A DNA stretch of 64,000 nucleotides from Verrucomicrobiia bacterium (lineage in GTDB: Bacteria > Verrucomicrobiota > Verrucomicrobiia > Limisphaerales > UBA11358). The first letter of the stretch is position 1. Each line of letters begins with the position of its first letter. The translations under genes and the position numbers were made by a program. Below are positions 43,548-53,584 of the stretch, piece after piece. Below the pieces are notes generated by a model. It did no database searches. It saw only the letters and a program-made list of their open reading frames with translations, and was not told the origin of the DNA. The stretch lies in contig DATAST010000208.1 in assembly GCA_036269115.1 (NCBI GenBank), forward strand, positions 2,431 to 66,430, given 5' to 3'.

Positions 43548-44507
43548 ATGATGACAAGAGAGCGCAAGGCTTCACATATGAAAACGTTTTTAACCGTACT
43601 GCTTGTTTTACTCACCGGAGGAATTCTCGAAGGCGTGGCTGTGCCGCCGACCCTGGTTGAAGCCGGGCCGTTCATAAAAATCTACGATCCCAGTATCGGA
43701 GAGACAAACCGCTGGTACATCAATGACCACTGTTTTATCCAGGGACCGGACGGCCTGTGGCACATGTTTGGGATTACCCATGCCGAGCCCAGGGACCCGC
43801 AACATGAAATTTATTTTGCGCACGCGACCGCTAAAACGTTGTTGCAACAGCCATGGGACAAAAAGCCGTTTGCGTTAGAGGCCGCCACAGGCGCCCCATG
43901 GTATGAAACTCATTTGTGGGCGCCGGACATCGTTTCTTACCATCACCTATTCTACATGTTTTATTGCGCCGGCGGTTCCGACCACACGAAGTACAAAATC
44001 AACCTCGCGACTTCGCCGGACCTCGAAACCTGGACCCGTTCCCCGCGGAATCCGATGATTGTGGACGGATTTGACGCGCGCGATCCTTTCATTCTCCAAA
44101 TCAACGGCAAATGGGTTCTTTATTATTGCGCGACGAGCGACCCATCCAGGGGACATCATGTTGTCGCCTGCATGACGAGCGATGATTTGCTGACGTGGAC
44201 CAATCGGCAAATTGTTTTTTCCGATCCGTCCATCGGAACGTTTGCAGGTAATACTGAATCACCGTTTGTAGTGCAACGCGGCAAAGCCTGGTATTTGTTC
44301 ATCGGGCCGCGAGGCGGTTATGACGGAACCGATGTTTTTATTAGTCATGACCCTTTTCATTGGGACATTAATGACAAGGTCGGGCACATCCCCGCCCATG
44401 CCGCGGAAGTAATTCAGGATACCGATGGCAAATGGTATATCAGCCGCGCCGGATGGGGTCGCGGAGGGCTTTATTTGGCGCCGCTGATATGGAAAGATAG
44501 AAATTAA
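43548..44507 (+). CDS. Secreted five-bladed beta-propeller glycoside hydrolase-like protein (GH43/GH32 clan-like)
   Basis: Signal peptide from the Met at 43578 (MKTFLTVLLVLLTGG). Motifs WHMFGITH, LWAPDIV, ARDPFILQINGKWVLYY and SPFVVQRGKAWYLF are typical of propeller blades. Confidence 0.6.
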   Translation: MMTRERKASHMKTFLTVLLVLLTGGILEGVAVPPTLVEAGPFIKIYDPSIGETNRWYINDHCFIQGPDGLWHMFGITHAEPRDPQHEIYFAHATAKTLLQQPWDKKPFALEAATGAPWYETHLWAPDIVSYHHLFYMFYCAGGSDHTKYKINLATSPDLETWTRSPRNPMIVDGFDARDPFILQINGKWVLYYCATSDPSRGHHVVACMTSDDLLTWTNRQIVFSDPSIGTFAGNTESPFVVQRGKAWYLFIGPRGGYDGTDVFISHDPFHWDINDKVGHIPAHAAEVIQDTDGKWYISRAGWGRGGLYLAPLIWKDRN

Positions 44508-44571
44508 GGTTTTGAGTCCTTGCTGAAATCGACAGTCATGCTACTATTTGAATTGGGCCATAGGCAGATGC

Positions 44572-45459
44572 ATGAAATTCCGGCATTGTACATGTTCCAG
44601 TCCCGGCGACACGGGAGGTGCCAAGACAGGATTTACCCTCGTTGAATTGCTCGTTGTTATAGCGATTATTGGCATCCTGACCGCAGTGTTTTTGCCTGTC
44701 CTGGCCCGGGCCAAGACACGGGCTTTGCGTATCCAGTGCATTAGCAACGAAAGGCAGCTGACATTGACATGGGCGGTTTACCTGGGAGACAACGACAATA
44801 AACTGCCTCCAAACAGCAAATGCCCTCCCGATGGCGACCCGGATTTGAAGTTATGGGTGCAAGGCTCATATTACTACCCGGATACCAACGATGCTCTTCT
44901 ATACAGCCCCAAATATGCGCTGTTCGCGCCTTATTTGGCCGCCACCCGGGTGTATCATTGTCCGGCAGACATTTCGGAGTTCTCTCGCAATGGCATCCAG
45001 TGTCCTAAGCTAAGAAGCTACGGGCTCAATGCGTGGATGGGGTGGGCGGGGGTGTGGGATGGTGTGCTCGGCTCTCCCACTGGCTGCCGTATCTTTCAAC
45101 AGGCAAGTGAAATCACAACTCCATCGCGATATTTTACGTTTCAAGATGTTTACCCATCGAGTATCTGCTGGCCATCTTTTGGCGTTTCCATGACGTATCC
45201 AGGTTCGGAAGTATTCTATAATTTCCCCTCAATCGCACACGATAACGGAGGAGTAGTGGCCTTTGCTGACAGCCACGTAGAATGGCATCGTTGGAGGGAT
45301 CCGCGGACTCTGTCCCCCACTTCCATTGATTTCCACAGACACAGTGATCCATCACCGTACAACGCAGACGTTGATTGGCTCCAATATCATGCAACGATAA
45401 TCGTTGACCAACCAACCTTGACGCTGCCTCCCGGGAAGGGCCCCACGGGTCCTATGTGA
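44572..45459 (+). CDS. Prepilin-type N-terminal cleavage/methylation domain protein with an H-X9-DG-like C-terminal region
   Basis: GFTLVELLVVIAIIGILTAVFLPVLARAK (type IV pilin-like leader) and C-terminal VVAFADSHVEWHRWRD. Confidence 0.8.
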   Translation: MKFRHCTCSSPGDTGGAKTGFTLVELLVVIAIIGILTAVFLPVLARAKTRALRIQCISNERQLTLTWAVYLGDNDNKLPPNSKCPPDGDPDLKLWVQGSYYYPDTNDALLYSPKYALFAPYLAATRVYHCPADISEFSRNGIQCPKLRSYGLNAWMGWAGVWDGVLGSPTGCRIFQQASEITTPSRYFTFQDVYPSSICWPSFGVSMTYPGSEVFYNFPSIAHDNGGVVAFADSHVEWHRWRDPRTLSPTSIDFHRHSDPSPYNADVDWLQYHATIIVDQPTLTLPPGKGPTGPM

Positions 45460-45514
45460 GAAAACCAAAGAAGGCCTAAACAAATTGGCCAGATGGATGG
45501 CATTCAATCCGCAG

Positions 45515-45603
45515 TCAGAGCCTCAAAGCTTTGGAGCTGCTACGCCGCATAAATCGTAAATTGGAGGATGACGATGACAATGACGATGAGGATGAGAATG
45601 ATT
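45515..45603 (+). repeat. Composite dispersed repeat, copy A: hairpin-GCTGCTACG, then 1.7x CGTAAAT, then a (GATGAN)n-GAGAATGATT tract
   Basis: The sequence is tcagagcctcaaagctttggagctgctacgccgcataaatcgtaaattggaggatgacgatgacaatgacgatgaggatgagaatgatt. It shares its modules with 50201-50361. Confidence 0.75.
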
Positions 45604-45651
45604 AAAGCTTATGGGTGGGCGGCACGCGTGGTAGTGGCAACATAATTTTGA

Positions 45652-45960
45652 CTACACATACCCCTGTTTCCAAGGTTCCTTCAGCAAGCCGTCAACATCT
45701 CCAGCAACAAGCCGTCTCCAAAATTCAATAACCCGTTCTTTAGAAACTGGAATCATGTGTCGTTCTCCTCCGTCTCTAAGATGTTCCATTATCAAACGGC
45801 CATCGCGATGTGCGGATACGCACCATCCTGTGTCATCATTTACAACAGCGACACTCCCATCCACGATGCCCGAGGAAGTCAATTCGTCGAATAGCTCAGG
45901 AAGAGTTTCCAAAGGAGGATCATCTTCGCCCGACGCATCCATGTGCATTACGTGAAACAT
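45652..45960 (-). CDS. Small acidic cytosolic protein, unknown function (103 aa)
   Basis: I chose the ATG at 45960 (MFHVMHMDASGEDDPP ...). The longer track ORF would run through the hipB promoter. Confidence 0.45.
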   Translation of the reverse strand: MFHVMHMDASGEDDPPLETLPELFDELTSSGIVDGSVAVVNDDTGWCVSAHRDGRLIMEHLRDGGERHMIPVSKERVIEFWRRLVAGDVDGLLKEPWKQGYV

Positions 45961-46010
45961 GTTGCCTCTAATTTTAAATAATAACAGAATAATATGTGTT
46001 ATACCCGATA

Positions 46011-46039
46011 TTGACAAATTATCGTTTTTAGCGCATAAA
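46011..46039 (+). promoter_or_regulatory. Sigma-70-like promoter candidate for hipBA (TTGACA-17 nt-CATAAA)
   Basis: TTGACA at 46011-46016, a 17-nt spacer, and CATAAA at 46034-46039. The hipB ATG at 46046 would sit at about +1, which implies a leaderless or near-leaderless mRNA. Confidence 0.4.
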
Positions 46040-46045
46040 TCAGGC

Positions 46046-46279
46046 ATGAATGATCTTGCTCGCGATCCGAAACAGATTGGGAATATCATTCGCCGCGCCC
46101 GAAAGCAGCGCGCGCTAAGTCAGAAGGAGCTTGGCGACCGGACGGGCCTGCGGCAAGAAACGATTTCCTTGATTGAGAACGGCAACTCCGCCGCCCGGAT
46201 TGAGACGCTTTTAGCCGTGCTCGCCGCGCTTGATCTCGAATTTCAAATAGCCGCCCGTTCCACAGGAAATTATTTCTGA
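46046..46279 (+). CDS. hipB: XRE-family HTH antitoxin HipB
   Basis: IGNIIRRARKQRALSQKELGDRTGLRQETISLIENGN (Cro/C1 HTH). Its stop overlaps the hipA ATG (TGATG). Confidence 0.8.
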   Translation: MNDLARDPKQIGNIIRRARKQRALSQKELGDRTGLRQETISLIENGNSAARIETLLAVLAALDLEFQIAARSTGNYF

Positions 46280-47586
46280 TGCCACGCAAGCGCCAATATG
46301 TACCGTTGCGAGTTCTTCTCAACAACGTGCCTGTCGGGCAACTTCAAAAAGAGCCCGGCGGGGCTATTTCTTTTCATTATGATGAAAGGTGGCTGTCGAG
46401 GGAAAATCCCATTCCCGTTTCTCTTTCCCTGCCACTGCGAGAGGATGCGTATCGGGGATTGGCTGTCAGCGCTGTTTTCGACAACCTTCTGCCGGATTCC
46501 GAAGCACTTAGACAACGGGTAGCGGAACAAGTCGGGGCAGACGGCACCGACGCTTACAGCCTCTTATCGCAAATTGGCCGGGAGTGCGTGGGAGCCTTGC
46601 AATTTGTCCCCGAAGGCATCGCCAACAACAAACCCGCTTCAGAAATTGACGGCAGATCCGTCAGCGAGAAAGAAATCGAAGCACTGCTAATTAATCTGGC
46701 CCGGGCGCCGCTCGGCCTTGACCGAGAACAGGATTTTCGCATCTCCGTTGCTGGCGCACAGGAAAAGACCGCCCTGTTGCGATACGAAGGAAAATGGCTG
46801 AAGCCTTTTGGAACCACACCCACGACCCATATTCTGAAGACACAGATCGGCACGTTACCTAACGGAATGGACTTGTCCAATAGTGTGGAAAATGAATATT
46901 ACTGCCTGAAATTCCTAGGTGCCTTTGGGCTGCCCGTGAACTCAGCGGAGATCACGACGTTCGGCAAAACCAAAGCATTGGTGATCGAGCGTTTTGACCG
47001 AAGATGGGTCGGAACCGATCGGATTCTCCGCCTACCCCAGGAGGATTTCTGCCAGGCTCTGTCTTGTCCTCCCACCCGAAAATACCAGGGCGAAGGAGGG
47101 CCGGTGATGGTTGACATTCTCGAATTCTTAAAGGCTGCTGACGCACCCGCAGAAGACCAGAAACTCTTCTTGAAGGCGCAGATTTTGTTTTGGTTAATTG
47201 CGGCGACGGATGGGCATGCGAAGAACTTCAGCGTATTTCTCGGCCCGCAGGGACGCTTCCGCCTCACACCGCTCTATGATGTGCTGAGCGCGCAGCCAAG
47301 CCTTAATGCCCGGCAGATTGAGTGCAAACAAATGAAATTGGCCATGTCGGTCGGGCGAAGCCGTCACTATCGGATTGAGGAAATCCACGGACATCATTTT
47401 GTTCAGACAGCGGAAGCCGCCGGCTTACCCGGAGCGAGAGCAACTGATGCAATAAGAGAGATTATGGAGGCAGCGCCGGGTGCGATGAAAGCAATTGAAA
47501 AAGGCTTGCCGCAAGGCTTTCCGAAAAAAATTCACACCTCGATAACCGCTGCCCTGGCCAATCGTCTTAAACGAATCGAAATCTGA
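46279..47586 (+). CDS. hipA: HipA-family serine/threonine kinase toxin
   Basis: HipA N-terminal coupling domain, RISVAGAQEKTALL, and the catalytic ATDGHAKNFSVFL (DxHxKN). Confidence 0.85.
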   Translation: MPRKRQYVPLRVLLNNVPVGQLQKEPGGAISFHYDERWLSRENPIPVSLSLPLREDAYRGLAVSAVFDNLLPDSEALRQRVAEQVGADGTDAYSLLSQIGRECVGALQFVPEGIANNKPASEIDGRSVSEKEIEALLINLARAPLGLDREQDFRISVAGAQEKTALLRYEGKWLKPFGTTPTTHILKTQIGTLPNGMDLSNSVENEYYCLKFLGAFGLPVNSAEITTFGKTKALVIERFDRRWVGTDRILRLPQEDFCQALSCPPTRKYQGEGGPVMVDILEFLKAADAPAEDQKLFLKAQILFWLIAATDGHAKNFSVFLGPQGRFRLTPLYDVLSAQPSLNARQIECKQMKLAMSVGRSRHYRIEEIHGHHFVQTAEAAGLPGARATDAIREIMEAAPGAMKAIEKGLPQGFPKKIHTSITAALANRLKRIEI

Positions 47587-47610: not shown

Positions 47611-48537
47611 TCAGATGTGTCTGCTTGCTGTCACGTTTACTTCTCTATATTCGTTCAATGGCACCAACGGTGGTAATCCAGAAGGTGCTTTGATACAGGG
47701 CATTGCTTCAATGACTGTCACTCTGTTCACTTCTGCCAGCGTGGAGGCGTCGGTTTGTTCCCCGTCAGAAGCTGCTGCGGCCAGAGGCGCAAGTGGGTCA
47801 AGAAACCGGTATTCTTCGGATGACCGGGCCTCGGTTGTGAGTTCAACAAATCGAGACCCAATGTCAACGAAGCGGGCTTGAACGTGTCGAAGGTAATCTG
47901 AAAACCGCGCCCGATTCAGCGCGACTCGAATGTCCCGATCAAACTTTGCCGCCAACCAGACCATGCAAACGCAAACGCTTTGAAACAATTTGGATTCCCG
48001 CACATCGTCCAGATCCGGCGCAAGATGGTCCTCGGTATTGCGGAAGCGAACCGTCCAACCTACCTGTTCCTTGAAGCCCGGTTTCCCCGGCAAATCGGTT
48101 GGCGGAAATTGTTGCCAAGGACGGAGCGACCACGCTTTAAGTTCGGCGTCCTCAGCCAGTTTGAGTTCTTTGAGAACCTCCGCCAACGTGAAGCGATTGC
48201 GAAGGGTCGCAACCAACGAAGAGTATTGGGCGGGAAATGCAAGCCGAAGCACGAACTTCGCAAAAGGTTCAAACCGGTCCGCAACCTTGACGTGCTCTCG
48301 ATTACGACACCGCTTTCTAAAGCACTCCAAAACCTGCTGCCCGATTCTATCCAGATTTGCGTCGTCAATTCTATGATCCAGCAAGTCGAACAGCAGGGCG
48401 ACTGCATTTTGCACCTCCGTATCGGTAAGTTTGGGCGAACAGGAAGCCTGGAACACCGGCAAAACCTCGCGTAGAACGAATGCTTTCAAATCGGCATCCT
48501 CTTGTCCGTGGTTTTGCACTGCAATGAATTCGCTCAT
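47611..48537 (-). CDS. HEPN-motif (RNxxxH) protein, possibly the truncated N-terminal effector part of a larger defence NTPase
   Basis: VRFRNTEDHLAP matches the R-x4-H HEPN catalytic motif in a helical context. The last ~30 codons read antisense through a GloVer fragment, which suggests a non-native C-terminus. Confidence 0.4.
   Translation of the reverse strand: MSEFIAVQNHGQEDADLKAFVLREVLPVFQASCSPKLTDTEVQNAVALLFDLLDHRIDDANLDRIGQQVLECFRKRCRNREHVKVADRFEPFAKFVLRLAFPAQYSSLVATLRNRFTLAEVLKELKLAEDAELKAWSLRPWQQFPPTDLPGKPGFKEQVGWTVRFRNTEDHLAPDLDDVRESKLFQSVCVCMVWLAAKFDRDIRVALNRARFSDYLRHVQARFVDIGSRFVELTTEARSSEEYRFLDPLAPLAAAASDGEQTDASTLAEVNRVTVIEAMPCIKAPSGLPPLVPLNEYREVNVTASRHI
47630..47701 (+). pseudogene. 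Fragment of a GloVer-type (choice-of-anchor tandem repeat) gene
   Basis: The plus-frame translation VTFTSLYSFNGTNGGNPEGALIQG matches the first half of a GloVer repeat (LYSF-x-G-xxG-xxP-xxx-LIQG) and then breaks off. It is antisense to the tail of the 47611-48537 ORF. Confidence 0.45.
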
Positions 48538-48710: not shown

Positions 48711-48890
48711 CTCGTCTTGTTAATCGCAGCTTTCGGTTTCGGCATCCCGCGCGAACTTTTGTCATCAAGTTTCTTTGCCAGGGTCAGTGCTTCTGTTATC
48801 TTTTCAACTATCGGTGGAAGGGATAATACGGAAATTTTGAATACTAAAGCGTGCATACAGTGATGCCGCGGAAGAAAACAAGAGGAGATT

Positions 48891-49184
48891 ATGCAAAACA
48901 ACGATAAACCCCTGCCGGGAATTGATGTGCTCAATACGGGCTACGGAGATTTTGAATTGCGCTTTGACCCCAATAAGCCGGATGAGGTTCAAAAGGCCAA
49001 AGAGACCATTACTGATATGCTTAAACGCGGCTATGCCATTTTTGTGCGACAGGGTCAGGAAACTTTCCGCGTCCGCAAATTTGATGCCAATAAAAATGTT
49101 TACATTATCGGCAGCACACCGGCCGAGGAAGTCTCGGTAGCAGGAACCACGGCAATTGCGGTAGGCCGTTCAGCCGGGGGCTAA
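48891..49184 (+). CDS. Small protein (97 aa) ending in Gly-Gly; possible beta-grasp/ubiquitin-like fold
   Basis: Clean ORF whose C-terminus is ...AIAVGRSAGG followed by the stop. By eye the strand-helix-strand pattern is GDFELRF / PDEVQKAKETITDMLKRG / YAIFVRQG / ETFRVRKF / NVYIIG. The next gene starts 1 nt after the stop. Confidence 0.5.
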   Translation: MQNNDKPLPGIDVLNTGYGDFELRFDPNKPDEVQKAKETITDMLKRGYAIFVRQGQETFRVRKFDANKNVYIIGSTPAEEVSVAGTTAIAVGRSAGG

Positions 49185-49185
49185 A

Positions 49186-49938
49186 ATGGGAGATGAAGCA
49201 AAGGCGGAAATTGGTAAGGACCTGCTCACTTTAGATCAAGCTTCCCGCCAGCTGGCAAAAGATAGTCTGAGTCGGCAGGACTGGTCCGGATTGCCAATTC
49301 CCGTCCCTGGTTTGTCACTGGTGCTTGAACCGCGCTACAAGCATAAATGCCTGGAGGAATTTCGCTGGAAGGAGTGCTACGACGAGAATGGCACCCGCCA
49401 CGAAATTCCTGAAGAATCGCCGCCCCAGCCATCTGAATTTAGAAGGATCAATTCCTGGTGGAGCGACAGATATCACGCGACCATTATTGTATTGCAGGAT
49501 AATCAGGGACGCGCCCGGTTAGGCATCCAGCCGGAAAACAGCTTGTCGTTTACCCTTCGGACATTGGAAGCTGCGGCTGCATGGCCCGTCGAGGCCGAGC
49601 AAAAGGCCCAGACGAAACTCGCCAGTCTCATTCCCAAGAATTTATTCGAGTTATATCAACTGACTGGTCATTTTTCCGAAACAAGCAAGCGCAGCAATGT
49701 CACCTACTTGTTCCGCAGGTGCCGTCCAACCATTGCGATGCGTGAGAGCGAAGAGATTGCCTATTGGTTGTGCGCCCTTTGCCTGCACCCGATCGGCTAT
49801 TATGGCGACACTTGGGCCGGGGTCATGTGTCCAACTGATGAGGTTATAGCACATCTATTGATGATGCGCGGTTCCGAAGAAAAGTTTTGGGCAAACGCGA
49901 ATCAACATCCGCTCGACCATCCAGCTGCGGGAGTGTAG
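49186..49938 (+). CDS. Unknown 250-aa protein with a C-terminal Cys/His cluster (CALCLHP-x11-C)
   Basis: Translationally coupled to 48891-49184. Contains WLCALCLHPIGYYGDTWAGVMCPTDEV. No family is recognisable by eye. Confidence 0.5.
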   Translation: MGDEAKAEIGKDLLTLDQASRQLAKDSLSRQDWSGLPIPVPGLSLVLEPRYKHKCLEEFRWKECYDENGTRHEIPEESPPQPSEFRRINSWWSDRYHATIIVLQDNQGRARLGIQPENSLSFTLRTLEAAAAWPVEAEQKAQTKLASLIPKNLFELYQLTGHFSETSKRSNVTYLFRRCRPTIAMRESEEIAYWLCALCLHPIGYYGDTWAGVMCPTDEVIAHLLMMRGSEEKFWANANQHPLDHPAAGV

Positions 49939-50200: not shown

Positions 50201-50361
50201 CAGTCCGAGCCTGAAAGTTTTGGGGCTGCTACGCCGCGTAAATCGTAAATCGTAAATCGTAAATCGTAAATCGTAAATCGTAAATCGTAAATCGTAAATC
50301 GTAAATCGTAAATCGTAAATCGTAAATCGTAAATTCGAAGATGAGGATGAGAATGATTGAC
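50201..50361 (+). repeat. Composite dispersed repeat, copy B (hairpin-GCTGCTACG, 14x CGTAAAT, GATGAG tract-GAGAATGATT)
   Basis: The sequence cagtccgagcctgaaagttttggggctgctacgccg, then (cgtaaat)14, then tcgaagatgaggatgagaatgattgac has the same module order as 45515-45603. Confidence 0.8.
50237..50334. repeat. Perfect 14-copy heptanucleotide tandem repeat (CGTAAAT)14
   Basis: 98 nt counted directly, with no interruptions. Confidence 0.95.
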
Positions 50362-50476
50362 TATTTCACTTCAAAATTCAATTGCAGGACGGCGGAGTTT
50401 TTGCTTCATCATCTGCATGCACCAGCAGGCTGTGAGCGCCATTGCCCAGACCGTTTAGATCAATATCGAAGGTTTC
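50361..50476 (-). pseudogene. Duplicated 3'-terminal fragment (~38 codons) of the beta-propeller gene 51218-53584
   Basis: 50331-50476 aligns with 51188-51334 at roughly 85-90% identity by eye, with a 1-nt indel. The aligned segment includes the stop codon and the downstream repeat tract. Confidence 0.7.
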
Positions 50477-50692
50477 GTTCCTGGAAAACAAAGGCTCATA
50501 TTATCGCGCATAACGGAATGCGCCATCCTAATAATATTTTTCGAACAATTTGACGGTACTCCGCCACAATGTTCCCACGAACGTGCCTGGGATGAATGGC
50601 TGGAAGCTCGAAAGGAATTCGTGAAATCCGGAATCCTAAGGCCTAAGCCGTATCTTAATAAGTTTTCGATTGCGCGAGGAAGCTAGCGTTTT

Positions 50693-50959
50693 TCATGCCT
50701 GACTCAACCAATCCAAGGCCCGCCGCGTGGTTGCTTCATAACTCGACTCTTGTGTCTCGGTGCTGGCATACTCTTCGCCAGACGAAAAACACTCGACATA
50801 AATTTCAGGCTCACCCCCATAAATCTCAACTGCCCGCCCGTGTTGCTCCGCAAAAATGAAACGAGCGACTCCATCGCCGCGAATAGAAACTGAACAGCCG
50901 GCACTTGTCAGAGCCTCGGCAACCTGCTCCAATTGCTTATGGTAATCTTCGTTTGTCAT
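50693..50959 (-). CDS. Small acidic hypothetical protein (88 aa)
   Basis: I chose the ATG at 50959 (MTNEDYHKQLEQVAEAL ...). The longer track ORF adds a non-coding-looking extension. Confidence 0.4.
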   Translation of the reverse strand: MTNEDYHKQLEQVAEALTSAGCSVSIRGDGVARFIFAEQHGRAVEIYGGEPEIYVECFSSGEEYASTETQESSYEATTRRALDWLSQA

Positions 50960-51217
50960 AACGCATCTTGATACGCTTAACGCTCCAAAGTTGAGCCACA
51001 CTGTGAAGAACCGCAAGCGCGGAATTATGACAGACAAAGCGACGGTAAAATCAAACCCATGGGCCTGCTGGCTGCTGGCGGCGACGCTGGACAATGAAAC
51101 GCCTTGTTGCTACTGTATCTCAGGCGATAGAATCAGGCTGCGAAAACCAGCGAGATTAACTATTATAATAGGAGGTCGAAGTTGATTAAATTCGACGATG
51201 AGAATGAGAATGATTGA

Positions 51218-53584
51218 CTATTTCACCTCAAAATTCAATTGGAGGACGGCGGTGTTTTTTGCTTCATCGTCTGCATGCACGAGCAGGCTATGGGCGCCTT
51301 TGCCCAGGCCGTTTAGATCGATATCGAAGGTTTCATTTTTTGAATCGAAAATCATGTCTTCGGGCCGCAAGGCAACGTCTTCCTTGCCGTCCAGCGAATA
51401 GCTGGCCGAGACAATCACACTGGCCGGGTCAGCGACATTAACGACGATTCGGCTGTGACCACCGCGTTTGACGGTTTGGCTTTGAACGGTCAGAACGGGC
51501 GCAGAATTGTCTATCAGGAACGGCTCGCTAATGGCCTCGGCGCTACGCGCGGTTTGCGGCGTGTTGGCTAGACGGTCAGACGCGGTGATTTTGATCAAGT
51601 AATACCCCCCGCGAAAGCCGGTGGTATCGAATGAATAAAAAGTGTCGTCCGTTTTATCTTCGAGCGTGGTCCATTGGCTATCGGATTCGGCGCGGATCGA
51701 GACGGAATAGGTCAGCTTGTCGTCATTGGGATCTTTGGCTTCCCAAACCACGGTGCAATAGGCGGGGCGCGGCGTGGTCTGTAATGGCGGTTGTGCCATC
51801 AGGGCCAGGATCACTTCGGCAGCGCGGCTGGGCTTTGATCCACTACCGCCGTCGAGCAACTCATTCATGCTTGCCGGCGGCATGCCCATGTTCGGCATGG
51901 GCATTTTGACGACGCTGAAACCTTCATTATGAACGCGGACGCGCGAGATGACCGGCGGCGCGTTGAGGTTTTGATAATAAAATTCCATTTGCCGCAACTG
52001 CGCTGTGGCGCCGGGCGAACCGGCATCACGCTTGAACGAAACGCGATATTGCAGATAACGCGCCTCGGGGTTCGTGACCGCGATTTCCGGCGCCAAAGGC
52101 TGCGGCGACGACCAGTCGCTCCACGTCTTTTGCGGTTTTGGAGTATTGCCGGTACGGGTCATGAATTCCAATTTCGTGCCGTTTGGAACATCGCCCAAAG
52201 GATGCAGGCGTCCCCATTGGCTGTTCTGCTTCGCGTCAAAGACCGTGGACGTATAGGTACCGCTCCCGGCCAGCGAAAGATCGAGCCGATAAATATTCCC
52301 GGGGTTGCTGGTGGCAGCATAAACCTTGTCCGACTTGTCGCGATCCTTCAGCAACACGGCCACTTGCGCGCCATCGCTGGTTTTCTGCAACAGCCGCCAA
52401 TGGTTGGCGTCCTTGATTTCGTAGAGCCGGCCCTTTTCGCCGGTGCCGGCCATGAGCGTGCCGTCAGGGAGCAAAAGCATTGAATAAATCGCTTCGCCGC
52501 CAACACTCCAGTAATGTTCGCTAAAACCGTTGGTGCTAATGCGATAAATCGCGCCATACGATTTTCCGTCGTCCGCGCCCCCGCCCGCGTCAGTTGAAGT
52601 GTCGCCGGATGATATTCCTCCGATGGTCAATACGGCATCGCCCCCGTCGTTGTTTTCCGCCCCGGATGATTCGGTTCGGTGTCCACGCTTTAGCGTGTCA
52701 ATTCCGGCGCCAATTTTCATTCCGCCTCCGCCCATCTCTCCTCCGGCTGACGAAATCGCGATGGTGACGGGACCTTCATCTGAAGATTCGCCGGGTTTGG
52801 GACTCGACAAAAAAGTTGAGGCGTAAATAACGCCATCGGGCGCGACGACGATTTGTTTGATTTCTTTCTCGTCGGAATTGAACAGCACAAAACCGTGGCC
52901 GGCCTTGTCAATGCGGTAGAGATAGCCGTGCGGGCTTGAACCCGCCAGCAGATTGCCGTCGTTGTCCAGTGCGAGCGTCGTGATATTGGCCTCTTTGGTC
53001 TCAAAAAATGTGTCCGCTTTGGCGGGAGCCGAACCGGACCCGCGCACGCGCAGGATTTTTCCATGGTCGCCGGTCGCAAGATACAAAGCCCCATCGTTGC
53101 CAAAGGCCATCGCCCATATGTAGGTTTCGCCGGGATTGCAAAAGACTTCGGCGCGGCCATCGGAATCCAGGCGATAAACAGTCCCATTGGGTGATGTCGC
53201 GGCGTAAAGACGTCCATCGCCATCAATCGCCAGCGCATGGACCATGACCGCGTTTGGATCAAAAAACGTGGAAAGCTCTCCCTTCGGGGTCAGTTTGTAA
53301 ACTTTACCCTGATTACCTGTTCCGAAATAAATATTTCCCTTTTTGTCCTGCACCGCGGCCCAAATGATGGGATCGGTGACGCCGGCCGCGGCGGTCAGAT
53401 TCGTAATCGCGGGCGCCAGTTCGAGGTGGCCCTCGCTGGTGAGGCTGATGTTATCAAATTCGCCGCCCCTGAAGTCGTCGAACGAATCGTGAGTAACTTT
53501 TTGAGTAACCACGGCGCGGACGCCAGTGGCAAAAAATGGCGCGGCGAGGAGGACGGCGACTAGAAAGGCTTGGGTGGGTTTCAT
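51218..53584 (-). CDS. Secreted beta-propeller repeat protein with a Gly-rich linker and C-terminal Ig-like domains
   Basis: Signal peptide MKPTQAFLVAVLLAAPFFATGVRA. Blade motifs recur (GNIYFGTGNQGKVYKL, GRLYAATSPNGTVYRL, GALYLATGDHGKILRV, DGVIYAST). The C-terminal half is beta-sandwich-like. Confidence 0.65.
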   Translation of the reverse strand: MKPTQAFLVAVLLAAPFFATGVRAVVTQKVTHDSFDDFRGGEFDNISLTSEGHLELAPAITNLTAAAGVTDPIIWAAVQDKKGNIYFGTGNQGKVYKLTPKGELSTFFDPNAVMVHALAIDGDGRLYAATSPNGTVYRLDSDGRAEVFCNPGETYIWAMAFGNDGALYLATGDHGKILRVRGSGSAPAKADTFFETKEANITTLALDNDGNLLAGSSPHGYLYRIDKAGHGFVLFNSDEKEIKQIVVAPDGVIYASTFLSSPKPGESSDEGPVTIAISSAGGEMGGGGMKIGAGIDTLKRGHRTESSGAENNDGGDAVLTIGGISSGDTSTDAGGGADDGKSYGAIYRISTNGFSEHYWSVGGEAIYSMLLLPDGTLMAGTGEKGRLYEIKDANHWRLLQKTSDGAQVAVLLKDRDKSDKVYAATSNPGNIYRLDLSLAGSGTYTSTVFDAKQNSQWGRLHPLGDVPNGTKLEFMTRTGNTPKPQKTWSDWSSPQPLAPEIAVTNPEARYLQYRVSFKRDAGSPGATAQLRQMEFYYQNLNAPPVISRVRVHNEGFSVVKMPMPNMGMPPASMNELLDGGSGSKPSRAAEVILALMAQPPLQTTPRPAYCTVVWEAKDPNDDKLTYSVSIRAESDSQWTTLEDKTDDTFYSFDTTGFRGGYYLIKITASDRLANTPQTARSAEAISEPFLIDNSAPVLTVQSQTVKRGGHSRIVVNVADPASVIVSASYSLDGKEDVALRPEDMIFDSKNETFDIDLNGLGKGAHSLLVHADDEAKNTAVLQLNFEVK

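Follow-up and report, generated by a model that had tools for sequence, protein, structure and literature searches.

The window analysed here, a stretch of 64,000 nucleotides from contig DATAST010000208.1 of a Verrucomicrobiia bacterium, carries on its plus strand two adjacent small genes, here named A and B, that form an uncharacterised, widespread and phage-associated two-gene module. Both open reading frames (ORFs) were recovered as a preliminary description of this DNA, made from the letters alone, had given them: a translationally coupled pair of a 97-aa protein ending in Gly-Gly and a 250-aa protein, with the single base 49185 between the stop codon of A and the ATG of B. Its label "orphan" did not hold, as both proteins have hundreds of homologues. 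The features of the pair are:

48891-49184, plus strand: gene A, ORF call, 97 aa, C-terminus ...AVGRSAGG followed by a TAA stop codon
49186-49938, plus strand: gene B, ORF call, 250 aa, member of a large unnamed family
48882-48887, plus strand: Shine-Dalgarno-like GAGGAG, 3 nt 5' of the ATG of A, read from the sequence
48915-49115, plus strand: core domain of A, about residues 9-75, predicted strand-strand-helix-strand-strand-strand with invariant L14, G19, G47 and Y71 (AlphaFold2 model, diverse alignment, mutual information)
49125-49181, plus strand: C-terminal tail of A, residues 79-97, EEVSVAGTTAIAVGRSAGG, a conserved peptide terminating in a free Gly-Gly
49582-49935, plus strand: conserved C-terminal region of B, residues 133-250 (alignment of 41 divergent members and tail counts)
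49780-49788, plus strand: codons of Cys199-Leu200-His201 of B, an invariant Cys-x-His proposed as active or metal site

Compared with seven related loci, the ratio of nonsynonymous to synonymous substitution rates (dN/dS) was 0.06-0.10 for A and 0.09-0.11 for B, at dS values from about 0.9 to saturation; both genes are under strong purifying selection. Because of these ratios (0.06-0.11) and the hundreds of full-length homologues, A and B are to be seen as real genes and not as chance ORFs. Nucleotide similarity between the window and 22 related Verrucomicrobial loci set in at 48888-48891 and ended at 49937-49938, thus covering exactly the two genes, and no nucleotide conservation towards these 22 loci was found outside 48888-49938. 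Since conservation begins only at 48888-48891, the region upstream of A lies outside the conserved cassette. A promoter and terminator scan gave nothing exceeding the expectation from shuffled sequences.

The family is large. Single-sequence searches revealed 266 clusters of A homologues, the best 120 of these at 81-92 % identity, and 516 clusters of B homologues, the best 120 of these full-length and at 67-96 % identity. With a profile of diverse A proteins 754 clusters (90 % identity) were found, of which the 120 listed are separate proteins 107-168 aa long, and an exhaustive profile search placed 588 representatives at 50 % identity in the B family, 388 of them below 1e-30. Across phyla the identity was about 40 % in A and B alike. 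Every source labels the homologues as hypothetical protein; a few JGI labels, e.g. "spore germination protein YaaH", look spurious. The window proteins A and B had no match in Pfam, NCBIfam, PADLOC and PHROGs, and PADLOC-DB 2.0 gave no match at E ≤ 1 for A, B and the neighbouring ORFs without an assigned family. Applied to 41 divergent B and 28 divergent A proteins, the same profile libraries yielded nothing but one HNH insert in the B homologue P0361, and a weak but consistent Pfam signal for the B relatives was absent. Sequence searches of the PDB with narrow and wide profiles of both proteins returned chance matches only, a tblastn search with one B homologue had no match in GenBank phage records or PLSDB plasmids, and literature searches gave no description of the pair. 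With numerous homologues, a maintained pairing and no named family matched, the fallback of the preliminary description, an uncharacterised conserved two-gene module, proved right.

The most constant feature of A is its end. Among 218 divergent homologues 209 (about 96 %) terminate in Gly-Gly and 197 in AGG; in another count AGG stood at the C-terminus of 117 of 120 proteins, and a Gly-Gly end was present in about 105 of 110 A proteins taken from loci of several phyla and viral contigs. The terminal Gly-Gly, on which the resemblance to ubiquitin-type modifiers had partly been based, is thus a defining property of the family. The octapeptide AVGRSAGG is invariant among the 39 close homologues of A, and the logo of the 209 divergent homologues with a Gly-Gly end extends over some 19 residues, RR[VI]PAxxTRAVAVAR[TS]AGG, with alanine at position -3 in 197 of the 209. 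Four parts make up a divergent A protein: a core of some 70 residues (consensus ILNVGxGD..FD..P.E..RA...v.DMLrRGYal.v...R...FD...EYII), a variable linker that is acidic or rich in proline, a basic stretch and the 19-residue tail. In the basic stretch, the 25 residues before the tail, Lys and Arg account for 24 %, and AT-hook-like motifs of the RGRP type were present in 73 of 218 proteins. From the end of the core to the C-terminus the median distance is 55 residues elsewhere and 24 in the clade of the window, a clade that has lost the linker. Two other readings of the glycines were rejected: no core peptide follows the Gly-Gly, the actual C-terminus of the protein, at variance with a leader of a ribosomally synthesised and post-translationally modified peptide (RiPP) of the NHLP type, and an RVxG[FWY] motif of glycyl-radical proteins is missing in A.

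The fold of A was modelled with AlphaFold2 (AF2) from a shallow alignment, as was that of B, without the diverse homologues obtained later. The model of A reached a mean predicted local distance difference test (pLDDT) of 64, with 66-79 over residues 21-90, and presents two strands, a helix at residues 30-45, three strands and two further strands in the tail; the order of elements read by eye in the preliminary description agrees with this prediction. The two tail strands are not general, because a low-complexity linker replaces them in most homologues. The predicted element order is compatible with a beta-grasp fold, as the preliminary description had it, and A may have this fold; but the pLDDT is low, no fold match was significant and a profile comparison to ubiquitin, ThiS and MoaD gave 0.1 %. 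In Foldseek searches against the PDB the top matches were Hfq/Sm proteins (probability up to 0.9, TM-score to target about 0.6, E about 0.2), non-significant and dependent on the tail "strands" absent from most homologues; hhalign against Hfq gave 0.2 % with a small template. Ubiquitin-like matches stayed below a probability of 0.2 in the PDB library, and a search of the BFVD yielded one Megavirus ubiquitin-like (Ubl) domain at E 0.036, not rated significant. Covariation by mutual information with average product correction recovered the beta1-beta2 and beta3-beta4 hairpins and the packing of the helix; the beta5 columns are invariant, so this measure is silent on the diagnostic beta1-beta5 pairing. 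The output of a mean-field direct coupling analysis was numerically dominated by invariant columns.

In B, the alignment of 41 divergent members revealed invariant residues G35, P37, E138, L145, Y157, G161, S167, Y174, F176, R177, T182, L198, C199, H201, G212, P216, D218 and W235 and nearly invariant residues W133, E165, R169, S170, R180, P181, P202, Y206, T217, H223, R228, E231, H241 and G249. The segment WLCALCLHPIGYYGDTWAGVMCPTDEV (residues 194-220) holds the Cys/His cluster that had been read in two ways, as a CxxCxH...C metal site and, more speculatively, as an HP-x12-C arrangement reminiscent of E2 enzymes of the UBC fold. Only Cys199 (codon 49780-49782) and His201 (codon 49786-49788) of this cluster are invariant. 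Cys196 (codon 49771-49773) and Cys215 vary across the 41 members, the latter being Val or Thr in many, so neither the metal site nor the HP-x12-C spacing is a feature of the family. The residue after the conserved His201-Pro202 is Ile or Val, Cys215 lies 13 residues downstream and Cys199 two residues upstream of the His; an HPN-x7-Cys geometry is absent. Of the supposed conservation of Cys and His residues, that of Cys199 and several His persisted, in the unit Cys199-x-His201...Asp218...His223...His241 within the last 60 residues. A JAB motif was not found in the 41-member alignment, and Pfam UQ_con had no match to B relatives even at E ≤ 10. The AF2 model of B had a mean pLDDT of 55, below 50 in the conserved C-terminus, and gave nothing significant and no UBC match in Foldseek against the PDB. 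PUR-alpha nucleic-acid binders, its top matches, were rejected as structural relatives (rmsd above 15 Å, probability 0.1-0.16, poor model). Several B homologues possess highly basic N-terminal extensions. About 230 of 250 B proteins end in P[EA][AS]G[VLIM] (AAGV at 49924-49935 in the window), so both partners have conserved small-residue ends, AGG in A and AG-hydrophobic in B. P0361, a homologue of 413 aa, has an HNH endonuclease (PF13392, 1e-9) set in-frame into the conserved C-terminal region, between ...LMRGD and ...QQHPPHTPEAGL; this could be a mobile-nuclease insertion or a mis-assembly and is not intein-like.

Loci for diverse B relatives were collected from named genomes (48 loci) and from 77 IMG/VR viral contigs, the IMG/VR pieces (L059-L131) comprising ±8 kb. 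The named genomes include Verrucomicrobiota, Rubrivivax, Polaromonas, Sphingopyxis flava R11H, Rhizobiales, Planctomycetota, Vicinamibacterales, Dehalococcoidia and Saccharibacteria. Adjacency of the two genes, a point left open by the single window, holds family-wide: of the 128 loci scanned with a hidden Markov model of A, 110 have an A-like ORF adjoining B. This ORF lies immediately upstream of B in almost all of them and immediately downstream in about five; the other 18 loci contained mostly truncated B pieces or a B at the contig end. The start of B lay within -8 to +10 nt of the stop of A in 46 of 92 pairs. One protein, P0358 (365 aa), is a fusion in which ...ARTAGG is followed directly by the Met of B, the sole fusion among 269 B-type proteins. 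Decayed copies were an A-only locus (L002), a frameshifted B (L019), a deletion fusion (L026) and truncated B pieces. An excess of 5'-truncated B pieces was discarded as a sign of the direction of decay; it is an artefact of ascertainment, because the search patterns sit in the C-terminus of B. Neighbour clustering revealed no third conserved gene: no family was present in more than 11 of the 128 loci, save antisense shadow ORFs and one heterogeneous single-linkage cluster with inconsistent positions. A HerA/FtsK-like ATPase was linked in 8 of 135 loci, and in a minority it overlaps or closely trails the stop of B; that of L132 (11093-12865) has two C-terminal repeats resembling winged helix-turn-helix domains. 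At another locus a 1029-aa ATPase of the TraG type, resembling type IV coupling proteins, ends 9 nt before A. Loci with ATPases of these kinds include, besides L132, L092 (9317-11146), L041, L121 and the JGI contig of P0062.

The A-B module is of phage origin, and the family has its home in the early operons of temperate phages. Where it occurs in a viral contig or prophage, the pair resides in the arm for early functions, lysogeny and DNA metabolism. The commonest Pfam families among 113 flanking ORFs were DUF5131 (11), C5 DNA methylase (8), integrase (6), N6/N4 methylase (4), RecT (3), YqaJ (3), ParB_N (3) and an adenylosuccinate-synthetase-like family (2), besides DnaB, UvrD and HerA. DUF5131 (Gp37/Gp68) was the commonest large neighbour. 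The adenylosuccinate-synthetase-like gene, seen at two loci, could be the PurZ of phages with 2-aminoadenine DNA; Mom and NADAR occurred at one locus each. Phage copies are embedded in long co-directional operons and are not autonomous cassettes. At L132 the order is YqaJ-RecT-AAA_23-...-DUF5131-C5 methylase-x-x-A-B-HerA-like-x-DnaJ-integrase, followed by the host uvrB, and the upstream gene, A, B and the HerA-like ATPase overlap at their stop and start codons by 4, 8 and 4 nt; at L135 Mom and an N6/N4 methylase precede the pair and YqaJ-RecT follow. The Verrucomicrobial clade has varying flanks: DUF1016; ARPP-1; AbiEii with hsdM; an MmeI-type restriction-modification (R-M) enzyme with Kinase-PolyVal; a TraG-like ATPase; integrases; or Gp49/HTH. 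In one freshwater lineage (L003-L006, e.g. L003 2643-11400) the pair accompanies an MmeI-type R-M fusion enzyme and a Kinase-PolyVal protein, and this island splits a fatty-acid synthesis cluster between fabF-acpP-fabG and fabD. Neither JAB nor papain-like deubiquitinases were present in the precomputed Pfam annotation of the examined neighbourhoods, nor were Pup-ligase or proteasome genes seen there.

In the window the pair belongs to an islet of 4.7 kb composed of a 145-aa ORF, hipBA, a 308-aa ORF and A-B. The presence of hipBA beside the pair was borne out by Pfam matches for hipB (45959-46279) and hipA (46279-47586). The intervening ORF is:

47611-48537, minus strand: 308-aa ORF without a match in Pfam, NCBIfam, PADLOC and PHROGs, with RFRNTEDH, an Rx4H motif of HEPN type by eye

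Its assignment to HEPN proteins was not backed by a Pfam HEPN match and retains the RNTEDH (Rx4H) motif by eye as its basis. The defence-islet context attributed to the pair holds only loosely in the window; across the family the pair is at home in the phage early operon. The islet is bracketed by direct repeats at 45512-45610 and 50201-50360, about 90 % identical and 4689 nt apart (CAGTC.GAGCCT.AAAG.TTTGG.GCTGCTACGCCGC.TAAATCGTAAAT ... GATGAGGATGAGAATGATT); its GC content is 0.47-0.53 inside versus 0.55-0.60 outside, and no tRNA gene is nearby. The islet has the look of a cassette block that was inserted or recombined. Within the right-hand repeat copy 14 copies of the heptamer CGTAAAT form a perfect tandem array (50237-50334), while the left-hand copy has only two CGTAAAT units, followed by a run of GATGAC-type hexamers (45567-45601). 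A second pair of direct repeats (50330-50486 and 51187-51344, 88-93 % identical, 857 nt apart) brackets a 133-aa ORF on the minus strand (50693-51094), and each of its copies opens a small ORF starting with MRMRMIDYFTSKFN (50341-50553 and 51198-51401). Together the two repeat pairs look like an array of cassettes with a repeated spacer. Upstream of the islet, at 43548-45459, are genes for a secreted 319-aa protein and for a 303-aa protein whose N-terminus is a leader of prepilin type (GFTLVELLVVIAIIGIL), as is usual for the large DUF1559-like families in Verrucomicrobia and Planctomycetes. The leader agrees with the Verrucomicrobial affiliation of the closest A and B homologues.

Tentatively, we favour a reading in which A and B act as one module, B binding the tail of A and acting on its terminal glycine. 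A would be a small folded domain that presents a peptide of about 19 residues on a flexible spacer with a free Gly-Gly carboxylate at its end, a modifier or handle and not an enzyme; the spacer is short in the clade of the window and elsewhere long, acidic then basic and often AT-hook-like. B may be the dedicated partner that grips the extended tail and performs chemistry on or through the terminal glycine by means of Cys199-x-His201 with Asp218, His223 and His241, possibly an acyl- or thioester-type step comparable to those of an E2, a ligase or an isopeptidase on a ubiquitin-like tail. Activation of the carboxylate, if there is any, might use ATP from an unrecognised site in B or a ThiF/MoeB-type enzyme of the host. 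Expression from early operons beside DNA methylases and recombination genes suggests that the role of the pair in temperate phages is host takeover or counter-defence; in the Verrucomicrobial chromosome it is a stand-alone cassette in a variable islet. For this reading speak the layout of A, a core of about 70 aa, a variable linker and an invariant tail as in a tail-presenting modifier, as well as the Gly-Gly end that marks the family, the strict linkage of the genes, the fusion P0358, the Cys-x-His, Asp and His of B and the embedding of the phage copies in long operons. A is as conserved as B (81-92 % versus 67-96 % in the close clade), a balance that fits a modifier better than an antitoxin. 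The pair thereby hints at a new protein-tagging or regulator-effector module; the contact between tail and B, catalysis by Cys199, any covalent chemistry and the biological role are what we infer.

Several observations weigh against this reading. The fusion evidence comes from the single cluster P0358, and the deletion fusion L026 lacks the tail. Both folds were modelled at low confidence (pLDDT 64 for A, 55 for B) with no significant Foldseek match. Small templates gave hhalign values of 0.1 % for A versus ubiquitin, NEDD8, ThiS and MoaD and 0.6 % for the B alignment versus four UBC E2s. Core and tail are separated by linkers of 35-95 residues, unlike in classical Ubl proteins, and an adenylation or ATP-binding domain is not recognisable in B. 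The observation that E1 and JAB genes are missing near the pair in the window extends to the family: tblastn with E. coli MoeB and ThiF (E ≤ 0.01) had no match in the window and 1.85 Mb of flanks of 135 loci, a search beyond whose reach lie very divergent or distantly encoded E1s, and no E1, JAB or UBC was among the 25 commonest Pfam families of the 113 flanking ORFs. Finally, the small-then-large gene order beside hipBA and other toxin-antitoxin (TA) or defence genes also fits a TA pair. A minimal two-component tagging without E1, E2 and JAB homologues, in which A would be transferred via its Gly-Gly through a thioester on Cys199 of B to host or phage molecules early in infection, B being a new fold that activates the tail itself or hijacks host ThiF/MoeB, appears unlikely.

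Doubtful, but a serious competitor, is a TA-like or regulator-effector pair: B would be a toxin or anti-host effector and A its inhibitor, the N-terminal domain dimerising or binding DNA and the Gly-Gly peptide plugging B without covalent chemistry. Such a pair accounts for the gene order with its 1-nt spacing or overlaps, for the Verrucomicrobial clade as an exact two-gene cassette without conserved flanks that moves among unrelated contexts, and for the TA and defence neighbours, hipBA in the window and Gp49/HTH, AbiEii, R-M and Kinase-PolyVal elsewhere. Decayed copies are frequent (the A-only locus, the frameshifted B and the truncated B pieces), an intact B clearly without an adjacent A was not met among the loci examined, and A resembles type II antitoxins in its folded domain followed by a disordered tail, a third of the A proteins having a basic, AT-hook-like stretch. 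Antitoxins usually evolve fast, however, and A is at least as conserved as B with a tail invariant across phyla, while a mere plug would not require a strictly terminal Gly-Gly. A lacks a helix-turn-helix, ribbon-helix-helix or AbrB domain, B lacks a known toxin fold, and neither has a PADLOC match. In phages the copies are coupled to unrelated up- and downstream genes in long early operons, unlike autoregulated TA cassettes. Altogether the TA-like pair fits the cassette behaviour and the neighbours in the window, and fits less well the high conservation of A and the embedding in phage operons.

The same phage operons invite a non-catalytic explanation, an early complex directed to DNA, which we regard as rather unlikely. 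A would bind DNA via its AT-hook-like linker, and B, with a Cys/His/Asp/His zinc site and rich in conserved Arg, Ser, Tyr and Thr, would bind nucleic acid, the conserved tails serving as docking peptides; anti-restriction, DNA modification, recombination or replication are the roles in question. DNA-metabolism genes dominate the neighbourhood (DUF5131, methylases, RecT, YqaJ, ParB_N, DnaB, UvrD, HerA, Mom), and the motifs in 73 of 218 A linkers, the Lys and Arg content before the tail, the basic N-terminal extensions of several B homologues and the conserved [AS]G[VLIM] end of B point in this direction, as do the HerA/FtsK- or TraG-like ATPases directly adjacent at few loci and the weak PUR-alpha matches. 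Yet the clade of the window has no basic linker and has kept the tail and B, an ATPase accompanies the pair at only 8 of 135 loci, the PUR-alpha matches derive from a poor model, and no profile search returned a nucleic-acid-binding family. Far less probable still is a sulfur carrier of the ThiS/MoaD type, in which the Gly-Gly of A would be thiocarboxylated and pass sulfur to B, the acceptor enzyme of a cofactor or thionucleoside pathway. The invariant ...AGG resembles the ...VIAGG of E. coli ThiS, but ThiF/MoeB, rhodanese, cysteine desulfurase or biosynthetic genes were not found near any of about 130 loci, the context is one of phage early regions and defence islets, the hhalign value was 0.1 %, and we know of no long disordered linkers in sulfur carriers. 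The remaining probability falls to something that we have not considered.

To our knowledge, bacterial ubiquitin-like conjugation has until now been linked to E1, E2 and JAB enzymes that can be recognised as such, and mainly to the host side of the phage-host conflict (Bil, Bub and type II cyclic oligonucleotide-based antiphage signalling systems, CBASS). If the tail of A is used chemically, the pair would be a new, minimal way in which phages tag proteins; if the tail is a plug, the pair would stand for a new family of toxins and antitoxins, or of effectors and inhibitors, whose terminal recognition motif is unusual. The pair amounts to hundreds of clusters at 50 % identity in several phyla and at least 77 viral contigs, and none of Pfam, NCBIfam, PHROGs, PADLOC and the PDB contains it. 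As a target it is compact, comprising two genes, and an isolate prophage in Sphingopyxis flava R11H carries it.

Among known systems, A shares with ThiS/MoaD the size (66-100 aa) and the free ...(A/T)GG C-terminus, but it lacks the E1 (ThiF/MoeB), the biosynthetic context and the profile similarity, and most A proteins carry a linker and a basic stretch. Pup/UBact, a disordered tag of about 60 aa that ends in GG[QE] or similar and is encoded beside PafA/Dop and the proteasome, differs from A with its folded core and AGG end. Like type II TA systems, A-B is a coupled, mobile two-gene unit in small-then-large order, beside TA or defence genes and with frequent decay; unlike them, it has no known antitoxin DNA-binding or toxin fold, its small protein is strongly conserved and has an invariant end, and the pair is embedded in phage operons. 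Bil (Ubl-E1-E2-JAB), Bub and type II CBASS with Cap2/Cap3 are bacterial ubiquitin-like conjugation operons, the operon types 6a-6e of Iyer, Burroughs and Aravind 2006 (PMC1779556; see also bioRxiv 10.1101/2023.09.04.556158; PMC10097602). In common with them, A-B has a small protein with a free C-terminal glycine, which is the functional end of the protein or protein tail there and putatively so in A. The differences are the two genes only, with no E1-like enzyme or JAB/deconjugating peptidase detected in the neighbourhoods, a B without UBC similarity or HPN-x7-Cys, a beta-grasp of A that is not demonstrated, and a mostly phage-encoded location instead of host defence islands. The reading that we favour is one of analogy and not of membership; three defining features of Ubl systems, the E1 partner, the JAB partner and the UBC geometry, were looked for and not found. 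The 2006 survey of prokaryotic Ubl proteins (PMC1779556) was confined to neighbourhoods that contain an E1-like enzyme, a JAB enzyme or both; the phage case in it, TAPI-TAPK, lies in tail-assembly clusters. TAPI bears an extra C-terminal domain after a Gly-rich linker (PMC1779556), in contrast to the true terminus formed by the Gly-Gly of A; A-B resides in early, lysogeny and DNA-metabolism regions, not in tail-assembly clusters, and is without the JAB or NlpC/P60 signature of TAPK. With TAPI-TAPK (JAB and NlpC/P60) of lambdoid and T1 phages (PMC1779556) the pair nevertheless shares the general plan: a small phage-encoded domain, possibly of Ubl type, with a C-terminal glycine, beside a putative thiol- or metallo-peptidase-type partner and without an E1.

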